From an uncultured Clostridia bacterium (GTDB lineage: Bacteria > Bacillota > Clostridia > Christensenellales > UBA1242), in the NCBI GenBank assembly GCA_934747885.1, contig CAKVHE010000001.1, positions 445,584 through 509,583 of the forward strand: a stretch of 64,000 nt of DNA, in the 5' to 3' direction. Below, piece after piece: positions 2,373-54,055 of this stretch (its first letter is position 1; each line of letters begins with the position of its first letter). Below the pieces are notes generated by a model. That model worked only from the letters and a program-made list of their open reading frames with translations, searched no databases and was not told where the DNA came from. Both the position numbers and the translations under genes were made by a program.

Positions 2373-2451
2373 GCGCCCTCACTATTGGGGGCTTCTGTTT
2401 TGCGGTTTTTAACAAAATGTGTAAGTTTTCCACAGTGGTCTGCGGAAATTG
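2373..2451 (+). repeat. Cassette-junction repeat, copy A
   Basis: CCCTCACTATTGGGGG hairpin, T-run, then GCGGTTTTTAACAAAATGTGTAAGTTTTCCACAGTGGTCTGCGGAAATTG. Near-identical to the copies at 3111 and 5934. Confidence 0.85.
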
Positions 2452-2599
2452 CGACAATTGGAAAATGTTTTGGGCAGCAAGTTGCTTATAAAGTAATATA
2501 GATAAAGGAAATTTGTATACTCTTATCGAATTAAAAGTTATACAAGCTTATTGATGTAAAGACTTTACTCAAAAGTTTGATGTTTGATAGGAGTTACAA

Positions 2600-3103
2600 A
2601 TGATTGATTTAGATGTAAACGACAGTCTGCAAGTTAGGCAACAATTTTTTAAGGAACTAGAAAAATACTTCAACCTAAATTATCCAGAGTTCACAATCAC
2701 CAACAAAAAAGTTGAATGGTTTGCAATTTCACGCAAACACGACTTGCCTATTGGCAAAATTATGGTAAACGCGCGAGTGGAAGACGGGCATTTGCATGAC
2801 ATTAGCGTTTTTATTCCTGGCAAAACAGCAAAAATAATTTTTGACGAACTTTTTATGCAAAAAGAAAGGTTAGAAAGTTTTGTCGGTCACCCGCTTTGTT
2901 TTGACCGCAACAATAACAAAGACGCAGCCAGAATTGGGCAGTTTAGCAAATACTCTACCAAACTGGACGCGTCAGCAGTTGCAATAAATAAAGATGCCCT
3001 ACTCAATTTTGATTTAAAGGTGGAACAAGTTGCAAAAGAACTGGTAAAACTTTACGACGTCTTTATGCCAAAAGTTACCCGCATTGTAAACACTTCTCTT
3101 TAA
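2600..3103 (+). CDS. Hypothetical protein (DUF4268-like by recollection)
   Basis: 167-aa ORF with a GGAG RBS 8 nt upstream of the ATG. Junction repeat B follows its stop directly. The family call is weak. Confidence 0.6.
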   Translation: MIDLDVNDSLQVRQQFFKELEKYFNLNYPEFTITNKKVEWFAISRKHDLPIGKIMVNARVEDGHLHDISVFIPGKTAKIIFDELFMQKERLESFVGHPLCFDRNNNKDAARIGQFSKYSTKLDASAVAINKDALLNFDLKVEQVAKELVKLYDVFMPKVTRIVNTSL

Positions 3104-3110
3104 TTTTTAA

Positions 3111-3232
3111 CGCCCCCACTATTGGGGGCTTTTATTTTGCGGTTTTTAACAAAATGTGTAAGTTTTCCACAGTGGGATGTGGATAAGAACCAAGTTTGTT
3201 AAAAACTGTTTTGTAATAATTTGCTATATTGG
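3111..3232 (+). repeat. Cassette-junction repeat, copy B (long form)
   Basis: CCCCCACTATTGGGGG hairpin plus GCGGTTTTTAACAAAATGTGTAAGTTTTCCACAGTGGGATGTGGATAA, then the extension ...GTTAAAAACTGTTTTGTAATAATTTGCTATATTGG that it shares with copy D. Confidence 0.85.
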
Positions 3233-3321
3233 CAAAATAATTTATCGCAAATAAGAGTTTAGAACGCGTTTGCACGACAGGTTCTTTGCACGCAGATAGT
3301 TTGCGCGCGCGAGGACTACAA

Positions 3322-3379
3322 TTGCCGATATCGGCAATCTTTTAGGTGTTTATAGTTGCATTTTTGCCGATATCGGCAA
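3322..3379. promoter_or_regulatory. Two copies of the perfect 16-bp palindrome TTGCCGATATCGGCAA (putative operator pair)
   Basis: Exact palindromes at 3322-3337 and 3364-3379, centres 42 bp apart. A half-site GATATCGG recurs inside the spacer of the downstream promoter. Confidence 0.6.
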
Positions 3380-3453
3380 AAATTTTACACCTACCTATCC
3401 TTGAAAAATCCTAACACTTAATTGTGTAATAAAAAAAAGTGTGGTAATAAACA

Positions 3454-3481
3454 TTGACATTTAAGATATCGGTGTTACAAT
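3454..3481 (+). promoter_or_regulatory. Sigma-A-type promoter
   Basis: TTGACA (3454-3459), 16-nt spacer, TACAAT (3476-3481). Confidence 0.55.
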
Positions 3482-3489
3482 GCCAGCAT

Positions 3490-3530
3490 AAAGGTTGAAG
3501 AAATTTATTTTCTCCAACCTTTTGCATTTT
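3490..3530 (+). terminator. Terminator-like hairpin in the 5' leader (possible attenuator)
   Basis: AAAGGTTGAAGAA-loop-TTCTCCAACCTTT followed by TGCATTTT. It lies between the promoter and the first start codon. An inverted copy of the same hairpin sits at 24078-24111. Confidence 0.5.
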
Positions 3531-3595
3531 AAAAGGGAGTAAATTATGAAAATTAAAAACAAATCAACTGACAAATTGCGCAAGGAGGTGTTATA

Positions 3596-3871
3596 ATGGG
3601 TGCAGGCGGCGTTCCAAATAGAGGAGTTGAAATTACCGAAGCTAATAGTCTAGAAAAGACTGGCCATCCTAATTCAAAAGTATTACGATATAAGAATGGT
3701 AAATTAAAACAAGCTAGATGGTATGATAACGAAGGAAGAGCAATCCGCAATCGAGATTATGCTCACTCTGGAACTATGGATTTCCCACACGACCATGATT
3801 GGGACTGGAGCAGTGGTGAAGCAATTCGTGGCGAAGAGCATTTACAACCAGATTATAAAAACTATAATTAG
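3596..3871 (+). CDS. Small hypothetical protein with a YD-repeat-like motif and a His/Asp/Trp-rich motif
   Basis: AGGAGG RBS. The 91-aa product contains RWYDNEGRAIRNRDYAHSG and FPHDHDWDW. Its ATG overlaps the stop of a 16-codon upstream ORF (TAATG). Confidence 0.55.
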   Translation: MGAGGVPNRGVEITEANSLEKTGHPNSKVLRYKNGKLKQARWYDNEGRAIRNRDYAHSGTMDFPHDHDWDWSSGEAIRGEEHLQPDYKNYN

Positions 3872-3881
3872 GGGGTCAAAT

Positions 3882-5066
3882 ATGACAAAAAAAATTACAG
3901 AATACGAAAAAAACAAACAAGCTAAAAAACAACTACTTGTAAGAAATGAATTTTTGTATCACAAAAACTCTGACGGAAAGTATGATTTTCCAATTATAAA
4001 GAAACAAGATATAGATATTAAAAAGATCAAATTTTTAAGTTATACCGATTGCAAACTGAACGATGGAGCAAACAAAGATAAAACCATACACTTTTTTACA
4101 TATGATTGGAAATTTGAAAAAGTTTATGAGGAACCTAGCAGTGAATTAGAAAAATTAAGTCAATATTACTGCGTATTAAGTCCCGATTTTAGCATTTTCA
4201 CCAATATGCCATTGGCATTACAAATTGAAAGTATTTTTAAAAATAGATGGTGCGGTGCCTATTTCCAAAGTAAAGGTATAAGAGTTATCCCCACAATTAG
4301 TTGGGGAGATGAAAAATCTTTTGATTTTTGTTTTGATGGTATCGAAGAGGGATCAACTGTTGCTGTTTGCACTTACTATCGCGAAAACTGCGAAGATGAT
4401 TTTATGCCTGGCTATAATGAAATGATAAAAAGAATAAAGCCCCGTCAAATTATTTGTTATGGCGAACCATTTAAAAGCATGAAAGGAAATATCGTCGAAT
4501 TTTTGCCAACGACGTATGAATGGACCCGAGAACTGTCTTGGGACGACCTGGCGCGATTTAAGTGGGAAAAGCAGCATTTAAATATATGCGGGCTAAATAA
4601 ATCTGATTTTAAGTATTTTGATTACGACGACCCCTATGCACTTGATCAACTAAAAAAGTGTGACGTTTGTGGCAAAATTGTTGCCACCGATCAATACGGC
4701 AATGGTAAATGCAAAAACTGTGGGTGGCACAACAACCATTCGGCAAACAAATTTCCAAACTCTGTCGAGTACCCCAATATGGTTTCTTTAACCAAGGCAA
4801 GGGCACAATTTGCCGCCAATCAACCATTTTCGCCTAGTTTTGAAGATTTTGTTGAAGCGTTAACAAAATACAGCGAAATGGAACTGGAATATAATGGTAC
4901 TACTTTTTATGTTTATTTCTTTAGCGGCAAGCAGGTTGCGTTTGGGTGCAAAAATTTTGAAAAGCGCTATTTAAACCTGCAAGATTTTATTGAGCATGCA
5001 AGCATTAACAACGCTTTACTAAAAGACATTTGGAAAGAGATAAAAAACGCCAATTATATGTCATAA
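3882..5066 (+). CDS. DUF4417-like N-terminal domain fused to a CxxC...CxxCGW zinc-ribbon C-terminal module
   Basis: Start moved to the ATG at 3882 (GGGGG RBS) because the track's upstream extension overlaps the previous ORF. IHFFTYDWKFEKV...SPDFSIF...IRVIPTISWGDE matches my recollection of DUF4417. The C-terminal half is paralogous to 5247-5921. Confidence 0.65.
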   Translation: MTKKITEYEKNKQAKKQLLVRNEFLYHKNSDGKYDFPIIKKQDIDIKKIKFLSYTDCKLNDGANKDKTIHFFTYDWKFEKVYEEPSSELEKLSQYYCVLSPDFSIFTNMPLALQIESIFKNRWCGAYFQSKGIRVIPTISWGDEKSFDFCFDGIEEGSTVAVCTYYRENCEDDFMPGYNEMIKRIKPRQIICYGEPFKSMKGNIVEFLPTTYEWTRELSWDDLARFKWEKQHLNICGLNKSDFKYFDYDDPYALDQLKKCDVCGKIVATDQYGNGKCKNCGWHNNHSANKFPNSVEYPNMVSLTKARAQFAANQPFSPSFEDFVEALTKYSEMELEYNGTTFYVYFFSGKQVAFGCKNFEKRYLNLQDFIEHASINNALLKDIWKEIKNANYMS

Positions 5067-5100
5067 TTAACTTCTATATTAAATTGATAACCTTCCCTAT

Positions 5101-5188
5101 TTTTAACCAAACTTACAAGTACTCCACAGTGAGATGTGGAAAAAGGCAAGTTTTTTAAAAACTATTTTGTAATGATTTGCTATATTGG
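5101..5188 (+). repeat. Cassette-junction repeat, copy D (divergent, lacks the hairpin)
   Basis: TTTTAACCAAACTTACAAGTACTCCACAGTGAGATGTGGAAAA...AAAAACTATTTTGTAATGATTTGCTATATTGG aligns with the second half of copy B. Confidence 0.7.
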
Positions 5189-5246
5189 ACGAAATAAGTT
5201 ATAACAAAATAGACATATAATTTGGGTTGGCGTGAGGAATTGCAGA

Positions 5247-5921
5247 ATGCACAACGAAAACAACTACAACAAAATGGAACCATCCAACAATTTTAAAACT
5301 GAATTTGGAAAACTTGACCAGTTTTTGCCAAACGAACTTTCTTATGAGCAAAAACTGAATTTGCTAAAAAATTTGCTTTCGGCTGACGACCTGGCGCGAT
5401 TTAAATGGGAAAAGCAGCATTTGAATGTATGCGGGCTAAACAAATCTGATTTTAAGTATTTTGATTACGACGACCCCTATGCAAAAGATCAAAGCGTTAA
5501 GTGCTCAATATGTGGCAAACTGGCGTTTAAGGATCAATACGGCAATGGCGAATGCAAAAACTGTGGGTGGCAATTTAGCCGCGACGAAGAAGAGCTTGAA
5601 AAAACTGCGGGCATAAGTTATCCAATGTTAGTAACCCCCACCACGGCGCGAGAACAATACAAAAAGGGGTTACCATTTAAGGCAACCTTTAAGGAATTTG
5701 TAAACGGCTTGTATTATTATAGTGAAATGCTATTTGAATATAAAAATGTAATGTATGAGGTGTTTTTTGGAGAAAATGACAACATAATTTTATGCTCAAA
5801 AGATATGCAAAACGAATACACTTCACGAGCAGACTTTGAAGCCAATGCCAATATTGATGGCATCCTATTAAAAGATTTATGGAATGATGTGAGTTTTGCC
5901 GGCTTTATGTACTGCGGTTAA
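5247..5921 (+). CDS. Hypothetical protein, paralogue of the C-terminal module of 3882-5066
   Basis: Start set to the ATG at 5247 (GAGGA RBS 9 nt upstream). It shares WEKQHLN.CGLNKSDFKYFDYDDPYA, C..CGK....DQYGNG.CKNCGW and the downstream region with the neighbouring gene. Confidence 0.65.
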   Translation: MHNENNYNKMEPSNNFKTEFGKLDQFLPNELSYEQKLNLLKNLLSADDLARFKWEKQHLNVCGLNKSDFKYFDYDDPYAKDQSVKCSICGKLAFKDQYGNGECKNCGWQFSRDEEELEKTAGISYPMLVTPTTAREQYKKGLPFKATFKEFVNGLYYYSEMLFEYKNVMYEVFFGENDNIILCSKDMQNEYTSRADFEANANIDGILLKDLWNDVSFAGFMYCG

Positions 5922-5933
5922 TTGCCTTTTGCG

Positions 5934-6012
5934 CAGCCCCCACTATTGGGGGCTTTTGTTTTGCGGTTTTTAACAAAATGTGTAAGTTTTCCATAGTGGG
6001 CTGTGGAAATTG
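5934..6012 (+). repeat. Cassette-junction repeat, copy C
   Basis: CCCCCACTATTGGGGG hairpin plus GCGGTTTTTAACAAAATGTGTAAGTTTTCCATAGTGGGCTGTGGAAATTG. Confidence 0.85.
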
Positions 6013-6224
6013 TTGATGTTTTGCTTGCGTTTAATAGGTGTTTACAAATGGCTTAAACTATTGGCGGACAAAGTCTTTCCTTATATGTGCGCTACTGGAC
6101 AAGCAATGTGTTGACTTTCTTTATTATTTTGCGAACGCGCAGGCAGAATAAAATAATTTTGGCAATTTGTTTGGGCAGGTTGGCAAAAGCGGTAAAGTGT
6201 GGTAAAATATGTATGGAGAATTTT

Positions 6225-7364
6225 ATGACAAAAACAATAGGGCGCAAAATAGATTTTGAGTATTACTCACTTGATGACAAAGAAAAAATTGATTTTTTTG
6301 CCAGTCATGGTTATTTGCCAAATACCACCGACCCAAGCGAAAAGTTTAAGCCAAGCAAAGATTTAGATTTTGAGCGGTTTATGTACCTACCATCCAAACT
6401 AAGAGATGTAACGGGTGCAAGTTCAAAGGCGTTTGTCCGCGTTAAGGCAGACACCATTCCAGACTATGACAAACTGACCACAAAAAGCGCTTATGTTACC
6501 TACCTTGACGGCGTAAAAAAACAAGATCGTCCAAAAAATATTTCCTGCTTGTTAAAACGCACATTTTTTCCTTATAGCGCCTTTGAAGAGGCGGCAAGCC
6601 GTAGTTTGAACGCACTTGACATTCCTACCGTGTTTAATAGCCTAGTAGCCGACCCATTTTCGGGTGAACCTTCTACTTGCCTGTCGGTGGACTGCGTAAA
6701 GCAAAATGAACAAATTTATAGTTTGCTTGACCTGACCAATTATGATTGTTCCATACTTGAACCTTTAAGTTACTGGCACAAAATTTTGGACTACGCCCTT
6801 TTGCGTCAGCAAGCGCAACAAGCGGACGGATACGAAATGGCTAACAAACTTGACGAAAAATCAGTAAAGGCCATAAAATCTGCACTTTGCGAGCAATATT
6901 TTGCTCAACTGTATCTATTAAACAATTTAGATTACAGTGCGTTTAATGCCTGCATTATTTGCAAAACCGAAACGCAAAACGGCATCACCACCACCCATAG
7001 TCCACGCCTTGGACCCGCTATGGACTTTGAGTCTTGCGCCAGTTTGCTTTTTGATGAAGCAGAAACATCCGGCAATATTGAAAGCGTCAACATAATTGAT
7101 GCGCAGGAACGATTTAAGTCAGGTCTAGGCGATAATATTCGTTACTTTTTAAGCGAGTACCCTACCGAAGCAGAAAAATTTTTAAGTTGTTTAAAAACGT
7201 GCATTAACGAAAACAAACTTGCACGGCTTGCACCTACCGGTGACGACGAAGTCAACCTAACCTTGCGCCAATTTTACACTCTCATAAACAACAACTGCAA
7301 AGAATTGTGCGCGTCTATTGAAAAAGAAAAGGCGCTAATGGAACTTGGCATCGAAAACGAATAA
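6225..7364 (+). CDS. Hypothetical protein (379 aa), no family recognised
   Basis: Extended -10 TGTGGTAAAAT at 6198-6208, GGAGA at 6215-6219, ATG at 6225. The track's longer N-terminus would run through the promoter. Confidence 0.6.
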   Translation: MTKTIGRKIDFEYYSLDDKEKIDFFASHGYLPNTTDPSEKFKPSKDLDFERFMYLPSKLRDVTGASSKAFVRVKADTIPDYDKLTTKSAYVTYLDGVKKQDRPKNISCLLKRTFFPYSAFEEAASRSLNALDIPTVFNSLVADPFSGEPSTCLSVDCVKQNEQIYSLLDLTNYDCSILEPLSYWHKILDYALLRQQAQQADGYEMANKLDEKSVKAIKSALCEQYFAQLYLLNNLDYSAFNACIICKTETQNGITTTHSPRLGPAMDFESCASLLFDEAETSGNIESVNIIDAQERFKSGLGDNIRYFLSEYPTEAEKFLSCLKTCINENKLARLAPTGDDEVNLTLRQFYTLINNNCKELCASIEKEKALMELGIENE

Positions 7365-7426: not shown

Positions 7427-9082
7427 TTATTCATTTTCGTTGTCTTCGTTTGCGCTTGCGGTTTGAAACTTGACTGGTTGCATTGGCTTGATTACAACTT
7501 GGCTTTTTCCACAGTCGTCTGTGGCAACAGTTGCCTCAAAGTCTACATATTTGTCTTGCTCTTCAAAAAAGTCCACCAATTTGGCAAAAAATTGTTGCTC
7601 TATTAGTTTGTACATTCCGCGCACGCCAAACTTGCCTTTTTGCGCTACTTGCGCGCACGCCGCTGCCAAACTTGGATCTAGTTTGTACTTTACTGAAAGG
7701 TGCTCGCGAGCAAAAATTTTTGCAAGCACCCTATTTACATATTTTTCAGCAATTGTGGTATAGTCTTGCAAAGACAAGTCTTCAAACTCAACGAGTTTCA
7801 TTCGACCGAGTAGTTCAGCCGGAAAAGCTTTTTGTAAGCGTTCGGTTAGCGGTGGTTCAGCTATCTTCTTTTCTTCTAGCGAAGAAGTAAAACCTGCCAC
7901 ACGAACTTTAGACATTTTTTTGCCGTCTTGCCCCGCATTGCTGGTTGCAACAAAGGTAAAGTTTGAAACATCGTACATTTTGCCTCTAACGTTTAGAGTA
8001 CCTTCGCCAAACATATTCATAAACGCGGTTTTTACTTGTGCGTTACATTTTTCAAATTCGTCAAGTATAATTACGCCACCATTAGGGTGCGCTTGCACAT
8101 ATTCTAGGAGAACTGGCGGTTTGTCCGAACCAACATACCCCATTGGCGAGCCAACTATGTTGTTTATGTGTGAAGCATCGTGCATTTGGCTAATATCTAT
8201 TAGGCAAGGTTTGGTTTCTTCGCCATAAATGGACTTACAAATTGCTTTTGCCATTTCAGTTTTGCCCACACCGGTTGGCCCCAAAAATAATAGGACATCA
8301 GGACGTTCGTCATCTTTAAACACCCTGCCCTTTAAATAACTAACAATTTCTTGTTTGGCTTTGACTTGCCCCACTACTTCATCCAAATAAGCCGTTTTTA
8401 TTTTTTTAACTTCGGCAGCATGGGGTGTGCTTGTTTTTTGTGGCTCGGCAGTAAACTTGTTTTTTTGTTTGGCCTTTTTTTCTTTTACTTTTTCATAACA
8501 TTCATAGCCAATAAAAAGATTTTCTACATTAGCAAAAAAGACATCGGCCTTTGAGCCTATCTCAGTATATGCCTTTACAAAAAGTTCTATGCTCCTTTCA
8601 AAGGCTTCTGCGTCTGCAATCAGTTTTGCGTCTGGTTCGGCATAAGTTAAATCGCAGGTGTTAAGCTTGTCGCAAATTGCCTGATATCTCACAAACAAAT
8701 AACTATCTATTATGCTAAACGGATCGTGCAAAAAAGCACCAATTAGACCATTTTGCAGATCTAATTTTTGTAATTTTTGCTCTGGCCCCTCAACTTTTAG
8801 TCTATCCCAAAAAGACTTTTTGCGTGGTGGCACAGCGCGTATTTCTTGTCCAATACTATCTTGCAAAAGCCTTAAATCTTTATATACGCCTTGCAAAAAT
8901 GGTACGGTATCGGTGCTTGAAAACTCTGCACAACGCTCCAAATAAACATGCAATAATCGGCTAATTTTTACTACATCGTTTTGTTTGTAGGTATATTCAT
9001 ACCCTTCGCTCTTTAAATATTCGTTTAGCGCCATGGTAAGTTTTTCTTCACTTGGCACCAAACTGGTAACTTTTTCCGCCAT
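7427..9082 (-). CDS. Orphan AAA+ ATPase with a single ClpA/ClpB-D2-like module and an unrecognised ~230-aa N-terminal domain
   Basis: Walker A LLFLGPTGVGKTEMAKA, Walker B VIILDEFEK, sensor-like FVATSNAG, GYVG motif, and a C-terminal small-domain-like PAELLGRMKLVEF. Confidence 0.75.
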   Translation of the reverse strand: MAEKVTSLVPSEEKLTMALNEYLKSEGYEYTYKQNDVVKISRLLHVYLERCAEFSSTDTVPFLQGVYKDLRLLQDSIGQEIRAVPPRKKSFWDRLKVEGPEQKLQKLDLQNGLIGAFLHDPFSIIDSYLFVRYQAICDKLNTCDLTYAEPDAKLIADAEAFERSIELFVKAYTEIGSKADVFFANVENLFIGYECYEKVKEKKAKQKNKFTAEPQKTSTPHAAEVKKIKTAYLDEVVGQVKAKQEIVSYLKGRVFKDDERPDVLLFLGPTGVGKTEMAKAICKSIYGEETKPCLIDISQMHDASHINNIVGSPMGYVGSDKPPVLLEYVQAHPNGGVIILDEFEKCNAQVKTAFMNMFGEGTLNVRGKMYDVSNFTFVATSNAGQDGKKMSKVRVAGFTSSLEEKKIAEPPLTERLQKAFPAELLGRMKLVEFEDLSLQDYTTIAEKYVNRVLAKIFAREHLSVKYKLDPSLAAACAQVAQKGKFGVRGMYKLIEQQFFAKLVDFFEEQDKYVDFEATVATDDCGKSQVVIKPMQPVKFQTASANEDNENE

Positions 9083-9139: not shown

Positions 9140-9400
9140 TACACCACTTTTGCCCTTGCGCGCGAAAAACTAAGTAATTTATGATGTAAATTTTATAGCT
9201 TTTGGGTTCCAAAATCGCCTTATTTGCCACCTAAAAGTAAAACGCAGATATTGCGCAAACCACCTGACATAATAACTATTCGCAAAACAAAACCCGTTTT
9301 ACGAATAGTTTGATGCACGCCGACGGGCACCTGAGCCTTTAATTTTGGCAACAATATTGCCAAAATGGCAAGATTTTGATAAAAATCTACCAAAAATGGG

Positions 9401-9535
9401 GGATAATTATACCGAATTATCCTGGGATAATTCACCTAATTATACCCCGAATTATCTACTACCCCCCACGAAATTCCGTGCAATTCTCGAGGATAATTAT
9501 AGGATAATTCGCCTGAATTATACCCCCGAATTATG
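9401..9535. repeat. Iteron-like array of GGATAATT / (C)CGAATTAT words
   Basis: GGATAATT at 9401, 9425, 9491 and 9502. Inverted AATTATCC at 9415. Related TAATTATA/GAATTATN at 9437, 9449, 9515 and 9528. All lie within a 745-bp gene-free stretch. Confidence 0.75.
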
Positions 9536-23387: not shown

Positions 23388-23555
23388 TTTAATAGTCTGC
23401 ATTTTTAAAAGGGTTTTTAACAAAAACTAAAATATTGTTAAAAACTCTTTACCTTTTACGCCTTTGCTTGCTAAAACAAACTTGTGCCACCATCTTGCAA
23501 ATTTTGAGTTTTGTGATATAATATATACAATAAAAACTATTTGGGGGATCCAAAA

Positions 23556-24148: not shown

Positions 24149-24762
24149 ATGAATTCATTAAAAAACATTTTAGAAAATTGGGTACAAATAAACGACGACA
24201 GTTGCCCACTTACTATTGCTGATTTTTCTTACTCGACTTGGGTCACCCTACCAGCCAATTACAGACATTGCGAAATGTGTGTAACAATTAACAAGTGCTG
24301 GTTTAAAGATGAACCAAATAAAATTCCGCAAGCACAAAACTATGATGCACAGGCAAAATTAAACTATATATTAAGCGGTAAAACCGTAGGGCTATATCAC
24401 TATGGGTGTCATTGTAAAAAACGGAAATCTTCCCACGCGACATAAACGATATAAAATTGATTATTCCTCAAGGTAAAATTGATTGGTTACTAAACGACAA
24501 AGGCAATTGGATCAAAACCCTTGGCTACGATTTAAACCAAGAGTTTGTTAATACTTTATCCGAGTGCATTTTAAAACATTATTTTTATGGCGACTACGTA
24601 ATCGAAAATCATACAAAGTATGGCGTAAGAATAAAGATAAACTTTACACTACCTGGCTCTAAAGAAAAAATTTTGAAATTGTATAAACTAAAAGCAAGCT
24701 TTATGGTTTTCCCACACGGGACAATAAAGTGCAACACTTTAATAGGAGGTTGGCAAAATTAA
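24149..24762 (+). pseudogene. MuF-tail-like Cys/His motif protein with a DUF6883-like C-terminal domain, split by a frameshift at an A6 run
   Basis: ORF 24149-24445 (HCEMC...LYHYGCHCKK) stops 8 codons after the A-run at 24416-24421. The +1 frame is open from 24418 and reads ...KTEIFPRDINDIKLIIPQGKIDWLLNDKGNW... into ORF 24457-24762. That second ORF otherwise needs a TTG start with no RBS. Confidence 0.5.
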
Positions 24763-25143
24763 ATGAAATACCTAGACAAAGTTGAAGTCACTACCGACAC
24801 CCCACAATATCTAGCCCAAAAGGTGCACAAAGGCATGATTGGCACCATTATTGATCCCGAAATTAGATATTGCACCTTTAATGTAATTTTTATAGATGAA
24901 CGATTTGGCGACCCTGAGTTTTTTAAAAATGAAGACAATATGTACCTATTAAAAGACGACATAATTTGCCCAATTGACATTCGTCATCTAAAACTCGTTT
25001 TGGACAATCATAGCACTGACGAAATGATAATAGACAGTTTGCCGAGTCCTGACCTTCGCTGGTGGTGCAAGGTGGAAAATGGCTACATTCTAAACGCCAA
25101 AGGCGAGCGCAAAAACAAAATCGCTTACGACTATGATAGTTAA
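24763..25143 (+). CDS. Hypothetical protein, DUF4926-like N-terminus; tandem paralogue 1 (immunity-like)
   Basis: Its ATG abuts the previous stop (TAAATG). The last 27 aa are identical to the next gene. Confidence 0.65.
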   Translation: MKYLDKVEVTTDTPQYLAQKVHKGMIGTIIDPEIRYCTFNVIFIDERFGDPEFFKNEDNMYLLKDDIICPIDIRHLKLVLDNHSTDEMIIDSLPSPDLRWWCKVENGYILNAKGERKNKIAYDYDS

Positions 25144-25155
25144 AAGGACAAACCA

Positions 25156-25530
25156 GTGAAACTTTTAGATGATGTTATTGTAACAAACGACAACTACGCA
25201 AATGAAGGCGTACACAAAGGTATGCGTGGAACTATTTTGGACGCGCCCATTTTTTGGAACTCATTTTTTGTAAACTTTCAAGACCATCGCGCTTACGACA
25301 AAGAATTTATGCGCGTTCAGGAAAACATTTTTAAGTTACATGATGACATTTATATTCCGGTAAACATAAAAGATTTAGAGGTAATAGAGCCTTCAAATCT
25401 AACCGATGCGGAACTTGCTGAGGCGTTGTCACCTGAACATAAAGACTGGTGGTGCAAGGTGGAAAACGGCTACATTCTAAACGCCAAAGGCGAACGCAAA
25501 AACAAAATTGCTTACGACTACGATAGTTAA
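25156..25530 (+). CDS. Hypothetical protein, DUF4926-like N-terminus; tandem paralogue 2
   Basis: GTG start with an AAGGA RBS. Shares KLLDDV..., VHKGM.GTI and the WWCKVENGYILNAKGERKNKIAYDYDS tail. Confidence 0.65.
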   Translation: MKLLDDVIVTNDNYANEGVHKGMRGTILDAPIFWNSFFVNFQDHRAYDKEFMRVQENIFKLHDDIYIPVNIKDLEVIEPSNLTDAELAEALSPEHKDWWCKVENGYILNAKGERKNKIAYDYDS

Positions 25531-44819: not shown

Positions 44820-46235
44820 ATGGATAAAAATTTTGAACAAAGCAATCTAGATTACAAAAAAATCTGGAACGATGCAAAAAAAATTATCAGTAGTGACTTA
44901 AAGGCACTATCTTTTGATGTATGGATTGCCAACCTCGAAGCAATTGGCGTTAGGGGCGACGCGCTAATTTTAAAATCTGCTAGCGAAGGGGCAAAGTCGG
45001 TTGTTATGAAAAACTACACCGACAAAATTAAACGAGCAGTAAATCAGGCTTCTAGTTACCTAAACTCTTTTGAGATTGTAACCGAAGATCAACTCGAAAG
45101 TGAACTGGTTTTTGCCGAAGCAAAAAAGCCGGAAGTGCCTATTGCCAGTTCTAAACAAAAAGCCGAAGCCAAAAAAGCAGACGGCTCGCGTTTGTATTAT
45201 TTTAACCCAAAATACACTTTTGAAAATTTTGTAACCGGCCCTAGCAATAGTTTTACTGTTTCGGCGGCGCGCGCAGTAGCCGAAAATCCGGGTACCAACT
45301 ATAACCCTCTCTTTATATATGGCGGCGTTGGTCTGGGCAAAACTCACATTTTGCACGCTATTGGCAATTACTTAAACGATACCAGACCAGAACTTAATGT
45401 TTTGTATATAACAACTGAACAATTTGTTAATGAATTTATAGAAACCGTTTCTAAAAACGAACTTAACCTAAACAGCGGTTTTAGAAACAAGTATCGCAAT
45501 ATTGATGTTTTGATTGTTGACGATATTCAATCAATAATTGGCAAGCCTATGGTTCAGGAAGAATTTTTCCATACCTTTAATGCGCTTATTGGAGCCAGCA
45601 AGCAAATTGTTATTTCGTCCGATAAACCACCAAAAGATATCAACCCGCTAGAAGAGCGCTTGCGTTCAAGATTTGAATGGGGGCTTATTACCGACATTGG
45701 TATACCGGCCATAGAAGAGCGTATTGCCATACTAAAAAAGAAAGCATATATGGATAGGCAACAAATTGACGACGAAGTTTTTGAATATATTGCCGAAGCC
45801 ATGACAACCAACATTCGTGAACTAGAAGGCTTTTTATCTAGATGTGTGTTTTATGCCGGTTTACTTAAAAAACCAAAAGTAACACTAGAGGTTGCCAAAG
45901 AGGCACTAAAAAATTACATCACTGCTACCAAAGCTAGTTACGACAGCGACAAAATTTTGGAAGAAGTTTGCAAGTATTTTAGTGTAAGCAAAAACCAACT
46001 ACTTGGCAAAGACCGCAAAAAAGAACTATCGTATGCTAGACAAATTTGTATGTACTTGTTTGACGAACTATTGGATATGCCGTACACCTCAATTGGCAAG
46101 TTTTTTAATAAAGACCATGCGACGGTAATTTACTGCAAAAACAAAGTTGCCAAACAAATGAAGACGGACAAACTACTAGAAACTCAAATAAAAGACATAA
46201 AAGATTTGCTTAACATTAAAAAGTTTTCAACATAG
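44820..46235 (+). CDS. dnaA: Chromosomal replication initiator DnaA
   Basis: Walker A GGVGLGKTHIL, Walker B VDDIQ, sensor and arginine finger region, and a C-terminal DNA-binding domain (KDHATVIYCKNKV). Confidence 0.95.
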   Translation: MDKNFEQSNLDYKKIWNDAKKIISSDLKALSFDVWIANLEAIGVRGDALILKSASEGAKSVVMKNYTDKIKRAVNQASSYLNSFEIVTEDQLESELVFAEAKKPEVPIASSKQKAEAKKADGSRLYYFNPKYTFENFVTGPSNSFTVSAARAVAENPGTNYNPLFIYGGVGLGKTHILHAIGNYLNDTRPELNVLYITTEQFVNEFIETVSKNELNLNSGFRNKYRNIDVLIVDDIQSIIGKPMVQEEFFHTFNALIGASKQIVISSDKPPKDINPLEERLRSRFEWGLITDIGIPAIEERIAILKKKAYMDRQQIDDEVFEYIAEAMTTNIRELEGFLSRCVFYAGLLKKPKVTLEVAKEALKNYITATKASYDSDKILEEVCKYFSVSKNQLLGKDRKKELSYARQICMYLFDELLDMPYTSIGKFFNKDHATVIYCKNKVAKQMKTDKLLETQIKDIKDLLNIKKFST

Positions 46236-46471
46236 TGTTGAAAAGTTGAAAACCCAAAGTTTTCAACAGATTTTTAACAATAGTTTATAAACTGTTTAAA
46301 CAGCAATTGTTAAAAAAACTAAAAACTTTAAACCTTTTTTCACACGGTTTTAAACCCGCGGAAAGCACGGAAAATAAAGGCTTTTAGCACTTTTTAACAT
46401 TTCAACACTGCATACTAATACTACTACTAATAAAAATAAAAAATACAAATAACCGAAGGGGAGAAACAAAA
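46224..46471. other. Candidate oriC (dnaA-dnaN spacer): box-like word cluster, DnaA-trio-like run, AT-rich tract
   Basis: TTTTCAACA/TGTTGAAAA inverted pair around the dnaA stop (46224-46244). More TTTTYAACA words at 46260, 46271, 46308 (inverted), 46391 and 46399. TACTAATACTACTACTAAT at 46413-46431 reads TAG TAG TAG TAT TAG on the other strand. An A/T tract follows at 46431-46452. Confidence 0.6.
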
Positions 46472-47578
46472 ATGAAATTTATTTGCGACGGGCTGGAACT
46501 TTCAGAGTCAATAAACAAAGTTTTAAAGGCTACTGCTATTCGTTCTACCAATCCTATTTTAGAGGGCATCAAGTTAAAAGCAGAAAACGATTCGGTAACC
46601 TTGCTTGCAACTGATCTAGAACTATCAATAGAAAACAAAATTCCTGCCGATGTAAAAATTGAAGGTGAAGTTGTGGTACAAGGCAAATTTTTTGCCGAAC
46701 TTATTCGCAAACTTGCTAACGAAAAAATTGAGATTTCTAAAAACGATAACGACAACACTATCCGCTTAAAATATACTGATAGTGAAGGAACCTTGCAAGG
46801 TATGTCGGTTAACGAATTTCCTGAAATTAAAAAGATTGATAGCACCGACCACATTACCATTAAACAAAAAGACTTTAGAGAACTTATTAACAAAACAATA
46901 TTCTCGGCAGCCTATGACGACACGCGTCCTATTTTAAAAGGTATTTTGCTTGAAGTTACCGACGGAAAACTTAACGCCATTGCGCTAGATGGCTACCGTA
47001 TGGCAATTTGTTCAAAATATTTGGTGGATAGCACTGCAAACTTTAACATTATTGTTCCAGCGCGCAGTTTGAGCGAAATAAGTAAAATTATTACCGACAA
47101 CGAAGATGATTTGGTAATTAACATTCAAAAGAATTATATATTGGTTGACCTTGGCGAAACAAAAGTTATTACCCGCCTACTAGATGGTGACTTTATTAAC
47201 TACAAACAAGTTTTGCCGGTGCAAACAAACACCACAGTAACCGTTGCCAAAAAGTATTTGGAAGAAGCCATCGAAAGAGCAAGTTTGCTTGCTAGGCTGA
47301 ACAAAAACAACCTTATTACTTTTGACATAAAAGATAAGATTTTAACTATCTCGTCCACAAGTGACTATGGTAATATCAACGAAAAGGTACCAATTAGCAA
47401 AGAAGGTAAAGATATTTTGGTGGCATTTAATGCGCGTTACTTTACTGAATGTATGAAACAAATTGAAGATGAGTATATTAAAATTAACTTTACCTCTTAC
47501 AACGCACCTTGCACCTTAACCAGCACTGAAAATAGTGAATACTTGTACCTCATTTTGCCAGTAAGAATTGGAGCATAG
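46472..47578 (+). CDS. dnaN: DNA polymerase III beta sliding clamp
   Basis: 368 aa with the three-domain clamp pattern (NPILEGIKL..., RPILKGILLE..., LDGDFINYKQVLP). AAGGGGAGA RBS. Confidence 0.93.
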   Translation: MKFICDGLELSESINKVLKATAIRSTNPILEGIKLKAENDSVTLLATDLELSIENKIPADVKIEGEVVVQGKFFAELIRKLANEKIEISKNDNDNTIRLKYTDSEGTLQGMSVNEFPEIKKIDSTDHITIKQKDFRELINKTIFSAAYDDTRPILKGILLEVTDGKLNAIALDGYRMAICSKYLVDSTANFNIIVPARSLSEISKIITDNEDDLVINIQKNYILVDLGETKVITRLLDGDFINYKQVLPVQTNTTVTVAKKYLEEAIERASLLARLNKNNLITFDIKDKILTISSTSDYGNINEKVPISKEGKDILVAFNARYFTECMKQIEDEYIKINFTSYNAPCTLTSTENSEYLYLILPVRIGA

Positions 47579-47579
47579 T

Positions 47580-48236
47580 ATGGAAACCAAAACAAAAACA
47601 AAATGGACAGACATTTATGTGTTTTGTTTGCTAGCAATAATAACGGCGTATCTAGTTTTTTTAATTGAAGAACTAGTGCGCTCGCTTATTACAAAGACAC
47701 TCTCACCATTTAGTCAAAACCTAGTGGTATCATTTGTAACAATACTAGCATGTATGCTTGCCTACTATTTGCTTATGATGCTGGAAAACAGAGGAAAAAT
47801 TGTTTTGGGCAATTGGTTAAAAGTTTTTATTTATACTTACTTTTTGCTAAGCCTAATTGTTTACAACAGTTTTAATTTGTTTACCATAAAATGGATAATA
47901 ATTGCCGTTTGCAACCTCACTGGAATTTTGCTATCTATTATTGGTGTTTCGGTTTATTACAATTATCTAAAAAACCAAAACAGTCAAGTTAGAGCAAAAG
48001 CAATTATGGTAGTGCTATTTGCCATTTGCTTTACCATTGCAGCCGGTTTAATTTTGGAACTTGGGCATTATTTGGTTACCTTAATTACCAAACAAACCCC
48101 ACTAACTTTTGTAGGTGCAATAATTAACCTTGCCTATATGTTGGTTGGTGCCGTTGCAATAAACATTTGCTTTTTGATTTCGCTTCACAAAGGCAAAAAG
48201 TTTATTAACAATTGCTTAATTTATGTTGAAAACTAA
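47580..48236 (+). CDS. Polytopic membrane protein, unknown function
   Basis: ATG 1 nt after the dnaN stop, GGAG RBS, 6 hydrophobic helices. Confidence 0.6.
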   Translation: METKTKTKWTDIYVFCLLAIITAYLVFLIEELVRSLITKTLSPFSQNLVVSFVTILACMLAYYLLMMLENRGKIVLGNWLKVFIYTYFLLSLIVYNSFNLFTIKWIIIAVCNLTGILLSIIGVSVYYNYLKNQNSQVRAKAIMVVLFAICFTIAAGLILELGHYLVTLITKQTPLTFVGAIINLAYMLVGAVAINICFLISLHKGKKFINNCLIYVEN

Positions 48237-48250
48237 ATAGTTTTATTTGT

Positions 48251-48285
48251 CCCCGCCAAGGCAATTCTTGGCGGGGATTTTTATT
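48251..48285 (+). terminator. Terminator of the dnaA-dnaN-membrane protein unit
   Basis: CCCCGCCAAG-gcaatt-CTTGGCGGGG followed by ATTTTTATTTT. Confidence 0.8.
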
Positions 48286-49093
48286 TTATTTTTTAACAAA
48301 AGTTTAAACAGTGTTAAAAACCTTGTTTTGTCTAGAGTCAACTGTGGAAAACTGCCAACTTTTTAACAATTGTTTAACTATTGTTGAAACTTTTTTATTA
48401 CTATTTAACTAGTTATATTAAAAATTTTACCGCCGCACGTACCCTTCTCTTTGTCTAAACTAAGCGCTAGCAAGAGCGCGCAAAAATTTGCAATAAAAAA
48501 TTTGCGCCTATATATTTTATTATTGGTTTTGCTTAGCAAAATGACATCAAAAGTTGGCGATGCCTTGCTAGTGCGACTACTTACCATCACAAAGACAAAC
48601 TGGCACAAATGACACCGTTTTGCCTTTGCTGCGCTTGCGGGCTGGCCATTACGCTAGGGGCAAGCCAAGATACTGAGCGCCTTTATTGTTGGGTTAAGTT
48701 AAACGCTAGATGAGTGAATTATCTAAATAAAAAAACGCCCCCCGTTTGGTCAATGATGTTTGAAACTAGCAAAATATAAGCACTTTAATCTATAAAAGAT
48801 TAAGGTGTTTTTTTCACTCTCTTAACTGTAAAAAGAAATAAATATTACTGACGTTGTCAAGGATTGTCGCAAATAGCGACATACACTTTAACCTTGACAA
48901 CAAAGAATATTTGTTTACCATAATAAGAAAGAAAAAAAATAACAGCAAAAAGCGAAAGTGTGTTATGTTTACCAACACTTTCGCTTTTTGTCTGCTTTAA
49001 TTTAGTTTATAAGTGTGTGCTTGTCTTCGGTGGAGCGAAGTGACACCGACTTGTATCAAGACAAGCACGCGTTTAAATGCCATTTTATATGTT

Positions 49094-50926
49094 TTAATTA
49101 TTAAAAATATTTTCTACACTATCAAATAAAGGTTTAAAATCTTTGAAAATTTCTTTATCCGCAGTTAATAAATCTTTCCAAAAATCTTTTTTGTGTGTAT
49201 CTTTCATTTTGTAAAAATCAAATAATTCTGAAACCTTTTCTGCTTTACTATTTTCTCTTAAAAAATCTTCTGAGACTAATGTTTCTATTTCAATAAAGCA
49301 ATAATTGCTAGATTTTTTATTTACATATTTTTCTAATCTGGTAGGGACGGGTATTGTCATAGCATATCTATTACAATGCATATTCTTTAAATACAATCCA
49401 GAATTAATAGAGCCTTTTTCTTCAGGATATAATTTTTCACCTAAATTATTTTTAAGTGTCTTTAATTTTTTATATTTTGAATAGCCTTCGTTATCAAAAT
49501 CAAAAAGACAAATTCGTTTACAATCACTATCTAATGTTGTATTTGGACAAGTTAAAAAATTATATAATCCACCAGTTGAATAACCGCCTTCAATTACAAA
49601 TTGTGCTATTGCTTTAAATTTGTCATTTATATTATTCTCTGTGATATCAGTTATATCTTTTAATTTTAAGTAAGCTATCTTATAAATTTGGCAATATTCA
49701 TCTTCCACCAAAAGAGCATTTCCGTTTTGTCCCAGAGTTTTTTCTAATTCAATAATTCTGTCGTTTTGATTTTTTAGTTTAGTATAAAAACTTTTATTTG
49801 CTTCTTTTAATTCCGCATAATCAAATTGATTGACATTAATTATTTTAGGAGATTTATTTTGTTGACTAAAAATCTCATAAAATTCAGCATAATCTGGTGC
49901 CAATGAAATAGTAGCAGGAGAATGTGTTGTTATTACTACTTGAATGCCTTTGTTAATATAAAAATCTTCAATAACTTTGTAAAACGCTTCAGTAAGTGAA
50001 GGATTTAATGGAGCATCATATTCATCAAATAAAACTAGTTTTACATCTTTACTTATTTCTTCATCAAGTGATATTAATGCCAATTTTAAAATTGCTTTCT
50101 CACCATCACTTAAATCAGTTAATGCTCTTATCTCATCATTATTTCTTAGTTTTGGGTTTTCTTCCATATTTGGAGTATGAAACGAATAATCATCTTTAAA
50201 TCTATATTTAAAGCCAAGATCTGTAAATAGTTTATTTAAAACTGTCCAAGGGGCAGTCCTTAACCATGCACTATTGTCAAAAATATCAGTGGTTTTAGAG
50301 CATTCTATTTGTCTATCCGCTCGTTCACAACAAGCCATATAAAACAAGTTCCCAATTTGCTGAATAATATCATTCTCATTTCTCCATATAAAATCTTGTG
50401 GAATAATATGTTCAAATTCATCTCTTGATATATGAAAAATATTGTCATCCCTATACTTTTCTTTTAATAAAGATAGAAGTTTTTCTATAGATCTCCAAGA
50501 CGGATTTTTTGTCCCATTATCATAAAATATAAGAGTTCCATCATTATATTTTTGTCTTTTTTTTGTGTCTAACCACTGCTGATCCTTATTAAATCTTATG
50601 TTTTGCGAATAAAAATTCCAAGCTTGATTTATATTGTTTTGTCTCAAGTTAATAGAATACTGACCAAAATCATTCCCTAAATTAATATTGTCACGGAATG
50701 ATAAAAATAAAATATTTTCAATGATTTCTATATTTTCGTTTTCATCTGTTATTTTCACGGTTCTAGATATTTTTTCATTAGTATTATTGGCTATTATTTT
50801 AAGTAGCTGACTCTTACCAGTTCCATTTACACCAGATATTACTATTAAATCACCATTAAAAATATAATCCGTATTTTGTTGATAAGATTTATATCTTTCT
50901 AATATTTTAATTTCTAGTTTTTTCAT
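49094..50926 (-). CDS. OLD-family-like protein: ABC-type ATPase fused to a Toprim/DUF4435-like C-terminal domain
   Basis: Walker A GVNGTGKSQLLK, signature-like LSDGEKA, Walker B LVLFDEYDAPLNP, H-loop ITTHSP. The C-terminal ~220 aa carry LLVEDEY (Toprim Glu) and CLFDFDNEG (DxD). Confidence 0.65.
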   Translation of the reverse strand: MKKLEIKILERYKSYQQNTDYIFNGDLIVISGVNGTGKSQLLKIIANNTNEKISRTVKITDENENIEIIENILFLSFRDNINLGNDFGQYSINLRQNNINQAWNFYSQNIRFNKDQQWLDTKKRQKYNDGTLIFYDNGTKNPSWRSIEKLLSLLKEKYRDDNIFHISRDEFEHIIPQDFIWRNENDIIQQIGNLFYMACCERADRQIECSKTTDIFDNSAWLRTAPWTVLNKLFTDLGFKYRFKDDYSFHTPNMEENPKLRNNDEIRALTDLSDGEKAILKLALISLDEEISKDVKLVLFDEYDAPLNPSLTEAFYKVIEDFYINKGIQVVITTHSPATISLAPDYAEFYEIFSQQNKSPKIINVNQFDYAELKEANKSFYTKLKNQNDRIIELEKTLGQNGNALLVEDEYCQIYKIAYLKLKDITDITENNINDKFKAIAQFVIEGGYSTGGLYNFLTCPNTTLDSDCKRICLFDFDNEGYSKYKKLKTLKNNLGEKLYPEEKGSINSGLYLKNMHCNRYAMTIPVPTRLEKYVNKKSSNYCFIEIETLVSEDFLRENSKAEKVSELFDFYKMKDTHKKDFWKDLLTADKEIFKDFKPLFDSVENIFNN

Positions 50927-50971
50927 TTGATTCTCCTATTTAAAATAGACAAACAATTTTCGTGGCATTGT

Positions 50972-52926: not shown

Positions 52927-52946
52927 TTTACACCTCATATATGTTG

Positions 52947-53912: not shown

Positions 53913-53943
53913 AGTTTGATTCCTTTATTGTTTATACAATAAC

Positions 53944-53972
53944 ATTATAGCATAAAATGAACAATCTTTGTA
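53944..53972 (-). promoter_or_regulatory. Extended -10 promoter of the four-gene island operon
   Basis: Minus strand: TGCTATAAT (extended -10) with a weak -35 TACAAA 17 nt upstream, about 30 nt before the ATG at 53912. Confidence 0.5.
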
Positions 53973-54005
53973 TAAAAAAATATGCAAAGAATAATCTCTG
54001 CATAT
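53973..54005 (-). terminator. Terminator after jag
   Basis: Minus strand: ATATGCAGAG-attatt-CTTTGCATAT followed by TTTTTTT. Confidence 0.7.
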
Positions 54006-54055
54006 TATTTTGCAAGTTTCAAAAGTCTTTAACCTTGGGAGCGTTTATGTTTTAA

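Follow-up and report, generated by a model that had tools for sequence, protein, structure and literature searches.

A terminator and putative DnaA-box module repeated between foreign genes in a strain-variable, origin-proximal island of an uncultured Clostridia bacterium

Here we describe a short repeated module, which we call the junction, that separates foreign genes in a variable island of an uncultured Clostridia bacterium. The DNA analysed comprises a stretch of 64,000 nt (hereafter the window) and approximately 10 kb that precede it, a total of about 74 kb from this genome; the window is identical in sequence to the 203-kb ENA contig ERZ27286970:k141_31343, from a human gut metagenome. 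Four junction copies (A to D) form an array within a plasticity island adjacent to a tRNA-Thr gene, approximately 40 kb from the replication origin. In the explanation that we consider probable, and hold with moderate confidence, the junction is a composite of a terminator and DnaA boxes that is repeated between foreign genes, and blocks of these genes are exchanged by homologous recombination. The window's DnaA is 72% identical to that of a Christensenellales metagenome-assembled genome (MAG) and approximately 52% identical to those of MAGs named 'Clostridia bacterium'; the data suggest a Christensenellales-like gut bacterium as the host, with a genome that is probably small, the longest contig with these proteins having 879,602 nt.

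Junction copies act as portable homology: the block between two of them is removed or added, and one hybrid copy is left. This is seen in contigs of the same species (strain loci L004, L012, L020, L021, and L036) that were recovered by exact-protein look-ups, which gave four island architectures. The first, found in the window and at least eight other contigs, runs from a 342-aa gene through junction A, a 167-aa gene, junction B, a pair of 91-aa and 394-aa genes, junction C, a 224-aa gene, and junction D to a 379-aa gene. The second (L004) is the first plus two segments of approximately 1.4 kb—a short-chain dehydrogenase (SDR) gene with a 198-aa gene inside a hydrolase remnant, and a gene of the ornithine-cyclodeaminase (OCD) family whose stop codon lies 41 nt before A. 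In the third (L020 and L021), a single junction with the left flank of A and the right flank of D stands between the 342-aa and 379-aa genes, and the 3.56-kb A×D block with its four genes is missing. The fourth (L036, a contig of 589 kb) has one junction after the 342-aa gene, with the left flank of A and the right flank and extension of B; the A×B block, 737 nt carrying only the 167-aa gene, is absent. The copy number thus ranges from one to four per strain, and A or D is where many short contigs end, as is expected of repeats. Exact look-ups of the 342-aa and 379-aa proteins returned no further architecture.

An earlier reading of the sequence (the original prediction) had proposed that the genes behave as exchangeable cassettes and that the junctions offer homology for recombination; the blocks missing from L036 and from L020/L021, and the A/B and A/D hybrids left in their places, bear out both proposals. 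Of the five strain indels, two begin and end within junction copies, and do so in register. The junctions make up less than 5% of the island, so these two cases are not due to chance. The other three indels are not bounded by junctions: the OCD indel of L004, for example, is flanked by a 17-nt imperfect A-rich direct repeat instead. L036 also carries a replacement, in which its positions 5978–6138 take the place of window positions 3386–4541 (the remainder of a leader, the 91-aa open reading frame (ORF), and a DUF4417 domain). The swap is in frame and leaves a protein of 220 aa with the CPCC part only; over the first ~46 aa and the 5' untranslated region, it is 91% identical to the downstream paralogue.

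The junctions themselves form a well-defined repeat family. A repeat search found a 77-nt family of three copies, 87–94% identical, at 2375 (A), 3112 (B), and 5936 (D), and a four-copy family that adds the divergent copy C at 5100–5162; its core identity is 73%, and a GC hairpin is lacking. When as many as three mismatches are allowed, the core 33-mer TTTTTAACAAAATGTGTAAGTTTTCCACAGTGG has three matches against 0.00 expected from 100 shuffles and none elsewhere in the window; a 52-nt profile of core plus palindrome found no further copy in the window or the upstream flank. The three near-identical elements and one divergent element of the original prediction are therefore real. The palindrome pattern has 14 matches against 0.13 expected, and a chance palindrome was rejected on this count. 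A search of Rfam with the junction region gave nothing at gathering score (the best permissive hits had E-values of 0.25–0.33 and 22–27 bits, against cut-offs of 43–75), and the only match in a literature search for junction sequence strings was an unrelated papillomavirus paper.

Copies A, B, and D begin with GCCCCCACTATTGGGGGC and a T-run that is terminator-like in a terminator scan; this hairpin had been expected in every copy but is lacking in C. The elements had also been placed directly behind a stop codon, which holds for B, C, and D (9, 34, and 14 nt after it) but not for A, which starts 130 nt past the stop of the 342-aa gene and beyond that gene's own hairpin (2266–2307). The further similarity first described as a 45-nt extension is longer than that and is common to the copies at 3111 and 5101 (B and C), which are 82.7% identical over 104 nt (3143–3245 and 5100–5202). 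This divergence is close to that of the adjacent gene segments (84% identity over 188 nt), as would be expected if copy C and the 224-aa gene arose long ago by tandem duplication of copy B and its CPCC gene. L036 has two such units in tandem, both with a junction ahead of a CPCC gene, and unequal crossing-over between junctions would yield such an arrangement.

Behind the hairpin, each junction combines a 31-nt core with a palindrome. The core, whose first 9 nt are TTTTTAACA, is the same in all A, B, and D copies from all strains. The palindrome reads TTTTCCACA-N6-TGTGGAWAA—two convergent canonical DnaA boxes 6 bp apart. All four copies lie on the plus strand. Junction A (2375–2451) has its hairpin at 2375–2392, the native-type box TTTTTAACA at 2406–2414, a canonical TTTTCCACA at 2426–2434, and a degenerate inverted TGCGGAAAT at 2441–2449. 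Junction B (3112–3205; hairpin 3112–3129) is the full form, and its similarity to C extends to 3245. It has TTTTTAACA at 3143–3151 and TTTTCCACA at 3163–3171 on the plus strand, then TTATCCACA at 3178–3186 and a second TTTTTAACA at 3197–3205 on the minus strand. Along the plus strand, B thus reads TTTTTAACA, 11 nt, TTTTCCACA, 6 nt, TGTGGATAA, 10 nt, TGTTAAAAA, with two boxes pointing right and then two pointing left. It is predicted to fold over 69 nt into an imperfect hairpin (z = -3.6; -5.5 if the terminator is included). Junction C (5100–5162, with similarity to B continuing to 5202) is decayed: both outer boxes, TTTTTAACC and, on the minus strand, TTTTTAAAA, are degenerate, while the inner pair consists of TACTCCACA and a perfect minus-strand TTTTCCACA at 5135–5143. 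Junction D (5935–6012) has its hairpin at 5935–5954, TTTTTAACA at 5967–5975, TTTTCCATA at 5987–5995, and an inverted ATTTCCACA at 6002–6010. A fifth palindrome, TTTTCCACAGTCGTCTGTGGCAA, lies at 7505–7527 (plus strand) within the 3' end of a minus-strand AAA ATPase gene (7427–9082); its profile E-value is 0.3 and it may be due to chance.

The identification of the palindrome arms as DnaA boxes came from a wider scan. The 24-nt degenerate palindrome pattern was run once against 185,579 species genomes and once against 241 million metagenome records, and was found only in the island, at the 3' end of one ptsI gene in another Clostridia lineage, and at one unrelated replication origin; a viral collection gave no match. 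The species-genome scan returned two matches (L001 and L002), both of which a 52-nt profile shows to be genuine. In L002, an unrelated MAG, the match lies amid many copies of TTTTCCACA, directly upstream of a gene matching the DnaN N-terminal domain; given this position at a replication origin, the palindrome can be read as two convergent canonical DnaA boxes.

The outer box has its counterpart at the lineage's own origin. The genes gyrA, gyrB, recF, dnaA (44820–46235), and dnaN (46472–47578) are all in the window, the last two with Pfam matches to DnaA and DnaN. The spacer between dnaA and dnaN (46224–46440), outside the array, has the build of the chromosomal origin: it contains seven boxes of the form TTTT[T/C]AACA, with three copies each of the 9-mers TTTTCAACA and TTTTTAACA, and at its end come the box pair TTTTTAACATTTCAACA, the trinucleotide-periodic, DnaA-trio-like TACTAATACTACTACTAAT, and AT-rich DNA. 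At the corresponding place the origin of L002 has TTTTCCACATTTCCACA and then TACTAATACTACT. Two related species, with DnaA proteins 70% and 67% identical to that of the window, have the same origin build (L038:11384–11567 and L039:1493–1742). Counts of TTTTTAACA and TTTTCAACA in these relatives are 13 and 9 in 21 kb and 10 and 5 in 11.5 kb, and those of TTTTCCACA are 2 and 0. From this origin architecture in three species we infer that TTTT[T/C]AACA is the DnaA box of the lineage. Since TTTTTAACA both opens the junction core and serves as a box at the native origin, the junction carries the lineage's own box variant. The 'common regulatory site' that had been proposed for the junctions thus reads as a set of putative DnaA boxes.

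Both box types are enriched in the window. There are 21 copies of TTTTTAACA against 5.7 +/- 2.5 expected, and 10 of the canonical TTWTCCACA against 2.1. With four boxes in 63 nt, junction B is exceeded in density by only two clusters in the window, those at the origin (7) and at 48.2 kb (6), and its count of four per 400 nt compares with a maximum of three in 100 shuffles. Host-consensus boxes clustered in short non-coding DNA, the mark of a DnaA-box cluster, are thus found at junction B. No junction copies were found near the origins of the two related species. A native box pair 3' of gyrA in L038, which shares AAGAACCAA.TTT with junction B, was set aside as it has no equivalent in the window. 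We also considered the domain IV signature of DnaA, presumably GGRDHTTV in its usual form, as the cause of the variant box; the protein here has NKDHATVIY, but distant Clostridia share KDHATV, and the idea was dropped.

How the blocks are exchanged can be read from the hybrid junctions. In the A/B hybrid of L036 the palindrome centre is A-like, and the crossover therefore lies to the right of the centre; in the A/D hybrid of L020/L021 the centre is D/C-like, which places the crossover to its left. The 6-nt spacers also differ among the copies (GTGGTC, GTGGGA, GTGAGA, and GTGGGC). No recombinase, integrase, or transposase domain is present among the genes called from 10 kb upstream to the end of the window. 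Together, the differing crossover sides, the variable spacers, and the lack of a recombinase in 74 kb favour general homologous recombination, probably of the RecA type, over a site-specific process.

The site-specific alternative would make the junctions the targets of a recombinase encoded elsewhere, like integron attC or Xer/dif sites, with the 7-6-7 palindrome as core site and the nested outer inverted repeat in an accessory or attC-like role; insertion and excision would then involve whole cassettes. There is something to be said for it. The same element follows each cassette, and similarity between copies ends at the right arm of the palindrome; the crossover of the L036 hybrid falls within the last ~7 nt of homology; and the centre of the palindrome is hypervariable, as crossover regions can be. 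The hairpin of B, moreover, ends in TTTTAAC...GTTAAAA, which resemble attC R''/R': each motif agrees at 6 of 7 positions with RYYYAAC or GTTRRRY, which we take to be the consensus. However, A and D have no right arm or R' and no attC-like hairpin (z = -0.4 and -1.5, against -3.6 for B and -1.7 for C), so that an attC-type fold is not found in every cassette. The spacer differences are incompatible with classical strand exchange by a tyrosine recombinase, the two hybrids crossed over on opposite sides of the centre, and the junctions do not bound three of the five indels. The arms match DnaA boxes exactly and also occur at an unrelated origin, and at least two cassettes have strong promoter-like sites of their own. 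Taken together, these points make site-specific recombination improbable as the explanation.

The likeness to several known cassette systems is partial in the same way. As in integrons, or clusters of attC sites lacking integron-integrases (CALINs), co-oriented unrelated genes are each followed by an imperfect-palindromic element, no integrase lies nearby, and the content varies among strains; here, however, only B and C are two-armed, the spacers vary, the crossover is not fixed, some cassettes have promoters or terminators, and the arms are DnaA boxes. No IntI-type tyrosine recombinase was found among the genes from 10 kb upstream to the window end, although a CALIN would not need one. An 11-6-11 Xer/dif site with matching centres was not found in the copies: their central 6 nt differ and their arms are unlike what we take to be the dif consensus. 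The pdif modules of Acinetobacter, which lie between XerC/XerD sites, are also small gene modules bounded by short palindromic sites with a 6-bp centre, but here the centres vary, the copies are direct repeats rather than inverted pairs, and the locus is chromosomal and near the origin. Orphan C-terminal modules from polymorphic toxin loci of the Rhs and contact-dependent inhibition (CDI) type offer another parallel, in tandem paralogues with a homologous CPCC stretch (84% nt identity) and in one strain with a module swap at the boundary; the variable part here is N-terminal (DUF4417), and no toxin, immunity, or secretion genes were detected. In Neisseria, minimal mobile elements are cassettes without mobility genes that are exchanged via conserved flanks, and short repeats of the neisserial intergenic mosaic element (NIME)/dRS3 type border variable genes. 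Exchange of cassettes by homologous recombination through flanking sequence is common to both; the homology here is a 77-nt terminator/DnaA-box module rather than conserved flanking genes or dRS3, and the host is a Clostridia lineage. Overall, the locus resembles repeat-mediated cassette exchange in plasticity zones in how it works, and origin-proximal DnaA-box clusters in its box content.

Mobile repeats were a further alternative: the junction might be a non-autonomous element of the miniature inverted-repeat transposable element (MITE), repetitive extragenic palindromic (REP), or bacterial interspersed mosaic element (BIME) type, inserted 3' of genes by a transposase encoded elsewhere. B and C are indeed imperfect palindromes of approximately 64–69 nt with terminal inverted-repeat arms of 13–14 nt, and the elements are intergenic and downstream of stop codons. 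A and D, on the other hand, have no right arm and are not palindromic units, no clear target-site duplication is visible, and no transposase lies nearby. Dispersed copies, which such repeats typically have in number, are absent: all four lie in one 3.7-kb stretch with none in the remaining ~70 kb, and the large scans placed this species' copies in the island only. We regard this explanation as highly improbable. The original prediction had itself named a generic REP/MITE-type repeat without strain variation as the outcome that would overturn it; what we found is an element restricted to the island within the ~74 kb covered, with cassettes that vary among strains. Back-to-back Tn7-like or insertion sequence (IS) ends (…CACA-N6-TGTG…) were also considered, given what we assumed to be a likeness to TnsB sites, and were not retained—there are no transposase and no target duplications, and the arms are DnaA boxes.

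A more serious alternative is that the junction has no function. It would then derive from the 3' untranslated region of a single ancestral gene and have spread passively through tandem duplication and unequal crossing-over; its box matches would be a chance inheritance from a captured foreign fragment. The ptsI homologue is relevant here. Core plus palindrome (44–56 nt; 93% identity over 43 nt) recurs in another Clostridia lineage (L001:1150–1201, L013:872–923, L014:2943–2994, and L015:169–220), where it overlaps the stop codon of a PtsI-like gene, recognised on visual inspection of its translation and by the HPr-like ORF next to it, and lies ahead of a terminator. That lineage uses canonical boxes, and the homology suggests a captured fragment; the decay of copy C, the tolerance of mutations in box cores, and the existence of single-junction strains likewise fit an element without function. 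Set against this, no A, B, or D copy departs from the 31-nt core sequence, whereas the 16 nt beside it vary. The ptsI-end element itself has 0 differences in 75 nt between genomes that are 88% identical overall, where neighbouring coding DNA has 2–6 per 60 nt. The 4 nt that differ between the junction and the ptsI version create the perfect native box TTTTTAACA, and a module of the same build (hairpin, T-run, and boxes) flanks the origin-proximal restriction-modification (R-M) island at 48.25 kb. A functionless junction is in our view unlikely, although of the alternatives it is the one we would take most seriously.

The origin of the core may, as a speculation, lie in capture of such a foreign fragment, in which four changed bases then made the native box. 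One of the contigs with the ptsI homologue, L001, is binned as Senegalimassilia (Actinomycetota); at 88% nt identity to the PtsI-bearing L014, mis-binning is possible. An exact 23-nt match to the core (AACAAAATGTGTAAGTTTTCCAA) at L027:1246–1268 was judged coincidental: it lies in the coding sequence of an NAD-dependent DNA ligase (at GKLTHFV) of a 29% GC phage and has no palindrome beside it.

The explanation that we prefer can be set out part by part. The intrinsic-terminator hairpin and T-run would end transcription of the upstream gene. Behind them, the 31-nt core supplies the lineage's own origin-type box, TTTTTAACA, followed by the two convergent canonical boxes 6 bp apart; the full form adds a fourth, inverted native box, present in B and decayed in C. 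Copies of the module stand between foreign genes, single or fragmentary, that come from mixed sources. When two copies recombine unequally through their homology, the intervening block is deleted or added and one hybrid junction is left, which gives rise to the strain differences. The boxes are putative binding sites for DnaA. Were DnaA to bind them, the island would be an origin-proximal DnaA-box cluster, or DnaA would form a roadblock or insulator between cassettes. DnaA-box clusters outside oriC are known as the DBCs of Bacillus subtilis and as datA in E. coli. Like these, the junctions have consensus boxes packed into short intergenic DNA near the origin (four in 63 nt at B and two or three in the others); in contrast to them, one module is copied four times here, fused to a terminator, placed between foreign genes, and equipped with two box types, and its copy number differs among strains. 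To our knowledge, no terminator with a nested quartet of DnaA boxes has been described as a junction module.

A stronger version of this idea holds that the module is a boundary element for foreign DNA near the origin, in which the box quartet with bound DnaA would insulate or roadblock genes, the copies would titrate DnaA, and their homology would serve the capture, amplification, and loss of cassettes. We think this version distinctly unlikely, if worth stating.

Several observations weigh against the explanation that we prefer. Binding of DnaA at the boxes is deduced from sequence. The CACA core of the inner boxes is mutated on the left in D (TTTTCCATA), on the right in A (ATTTCCGCA), and on the right in the A/D hybrid (ATTTCCATA), and the hybrid of L036 has lost its native box (CTTTTAATA); selection on the boxes is thus not strict. 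Canonical boxes, such as those of the inner pair, are rare in this lineage, and its DnaA may not prefer them. Box enrichment in the island reflects the copying of one element rather than independent occurrences. The hypervariable centre of the palindrome is not accounted for by plain homologous recombination. The 16-nt centres compared (2429–2446, 3166–3183, 5123–5140, and 5990–6007, with orthologous sites in L004, L012, L020, and L036) show 3–4 changes in 12 nt at orthologous sites, against a background divergence of approximately 1.5%. At the D site, for example, the centre is CCATAGTGGGCTGTGG in the window, CCACAGTGAGATGTGG in L012 (the centre of copy C), and CCACAGTGAGATATGG in the L020/L021 type. 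Candidate sources of this variability are template switching at quasi-palindromes, conversion between copies, and crossover scars. The first arrival of unrelated foreign genes between the copies is likewise left unaccounted for, only four architectures are available, each event can be read as a gain or as a loss, and the search for further copies covered ~74 kb of this genome.

The genes between the junctions are a mixed set, and all the features of the array given here lie on the plus strand. The left landmark of the variable island is a tRNA-Thr (CGU) gene at 496–571, found by ARAGORN and by Rfam (tRNA, 72 bits), in agreement with the original prediction. It is followed by a 59-aa chimeric remnant ORF (855–1034) without a Pfam hit, in which an alpha/beta-hydrolase-like N-terminus is joined to the tail of a 30-aa ORF whose start (PIGIGTW) is aldo-keto-reductase-like. 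In L004 (4131–5698) the SDR and 198-aa genes, 1.4 kb more than in the window, lie between the two parts. The truncated hydrolase gene noted here before is thus present as a remnant, but it is chimeric and was left by the 1.4-kb indel relative to L004; the arrangement points to repeated insertion and deletion beside the tRNA gene.

The first cassette (1214–2323) holds a single gene, the 342-aa ORF (1217–2245) with its own hairpin at 2266–2307. It had been called an HD gene; an H...HD motif can be seen by eye, but the protein has no hidden Markov model (HMM) hit in Pfam, NCBIfam, PHROGs, or PDB. The GC content of this cassette is 21–28% against a background of ~40%, and over exactly 1214–2323 it is 85% identical at the nt level to a gene in contigs of 23–25% GC (L028–L035). 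In clusters at 90% identity, the 342-aa protein has 1,230 members, against six for DnaA and one for GyrB. The gene is a recent single-gene acquisition from a 23–25% GC organism. The corresponding block in L028–L035, conserved together with DnaB-like genes and with variable right flanks (proteins of 695, 577, 99, 222 (weak HD), 113, 179 (DnaB_C), 422, 245, and 344 aa), would fit a widespread mobile element resident in a Gram-positive host of low GC. These donor-type contigs do not contain the junction element, and the junction therefore belongs to the recipient.

The 167-aa ORF of the second cassette (2600–3103), missing in L036, had been described as DUF4268-like; the match is weak (Pfam E = 9e-5, below the cut-off). 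The protein also matches PADLOC PDC-S11 (3.7e-8) over the C-terminal half only, profile positions 170–302 of 313. Next comes the leader of the 91-aa/DUF4417 operon (3321–3481), with palindromes TTGCCGATATCGGCAA at 3321–3336 and 3363–3378 and a promoter-like TTGACA-16-TACAAT at 3454–3481 (11/12 with TG in a promoter scan). The twin perfect palindromes look like a candidate operator for a repressor. In L036 (5913–5968), the second TTGCCGATATCGGCAA palindrome lies in the spacer of a TTGCAT-17-TATAAT promoter. The operon (3596–5066) consists of the 91-aa ORF (3596–3871) and the 394-aa DUF4417::CPCC protein (3882–5066). The DUF4417 assignment is solid (Pfam E = 3e-55), with a further match to phrog_940 'nuclease' (7e-58); C-terminal pieces match small phage proteins, and a related-locus search found no viral relatives of the protein. 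The 224-aa ORF (5247–5921), previously noted as a paralogue, is homologous only to the C-terminal CPCC half, a Cys-rich zinc ribbon (BLASTP 45% identity over 206 aa, E = 4e-61; 84% nt identity over 188 nt). The 379-aa ORF (6225–7364), without a family match, lies next to the last junction, on its right, in each of the four strain types.

The array had been likened to orphan toxin/immunity or defence-gene arrays, which is not borne out. Apart from the weak partial PDC-S11 match, a PADLOC search of the cassette genes found no known toxin, immunity, or defence family; the set comprises an HD-like gene, a DUF4268-like ORF of the size of a C-terminal fragment, a phage-type DUF4417 module, and CPCC paralogues, with metabolic genes (cyclodeaminase and SDR) added in L004.

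Outside the array, the minus-strand gene at 7427–9082 encodes an AAA+ ATPase (Clp-type, AAA_2) whose AAA core resembles PADLOC DolB/PDC-M37B (1e-30) and whose N-terminal half is species-restricted; its next relative is 34% identical, in the AAA core only. Without relatives above 34% identity outside the species, it was uninformative as a synteny anchor. Nested inverted repeats on GGATAATT lie in its upstream region (9398–9526).

Other segments of the window also bear boxes or vary. At 48202–48390, a GC hairpin with a T-run (48257–48290) is followed by three tandem copies of a 31–33-nt unit in which two boxes converge, TTWTTAACA-N13-15-TGTTRAAAA. The unit also occurs singly at 23414–23444, at L038:4115–4147, and at L039:3251–3282 and 4125–4157, and is a lineage-specific recurrent site. 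Adjoining the origin, the block at 48400–54050 (27–30% GC) is a second foreign island. It carries genes for an OLD/AriA-like AAA_21 ATPase (49094–50926), an Eco47II-type restriction enzyme (50972–51718), a C5 methylase with a helix-turn-helix (51718–52938), and a 321-aa protein. It separates dnaN and a 222-aa gene from jag/yidC; in the related species L038 these two sets are direct neighbours. This R-M/ATPase block (48.4–54 kb) also starts at a module of hairpin, T-run, and DnaA boxes. A further strain-variable segment at 24434–25157 has 126-aa and 98-aa ORFs in the window and a 206-aa ORF instead in L017 (12869–13202) and L018 (6480–6813); near it is a 39-nt hairpin-containing segment similar to 3486–3524.

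The locus is a sequence-resolved case of cassette gain and loss via 77 nt of portable homology without a dedicated recombinase, and bears on the remodelling of islands in small-genome gut Clostridia. The lineage box TTTT[T/C]AACA, supported by origins in three species, aids origin prediction in Christensenellales-like genomes. If the junction boxes bind DnaA, the junctions of a variable array beside the origin incorporate copies of a natural DnaA-box cluster, one to four per strain; this would offer a test of whether box dosage near oriC tunes initiation or whether DnaA insulates foreign genes. Should the module prove to be a boundary element, it would tie the initiator of replication to the way in which foreign genes are arranged, and this in a lineage with a non-canonical box.

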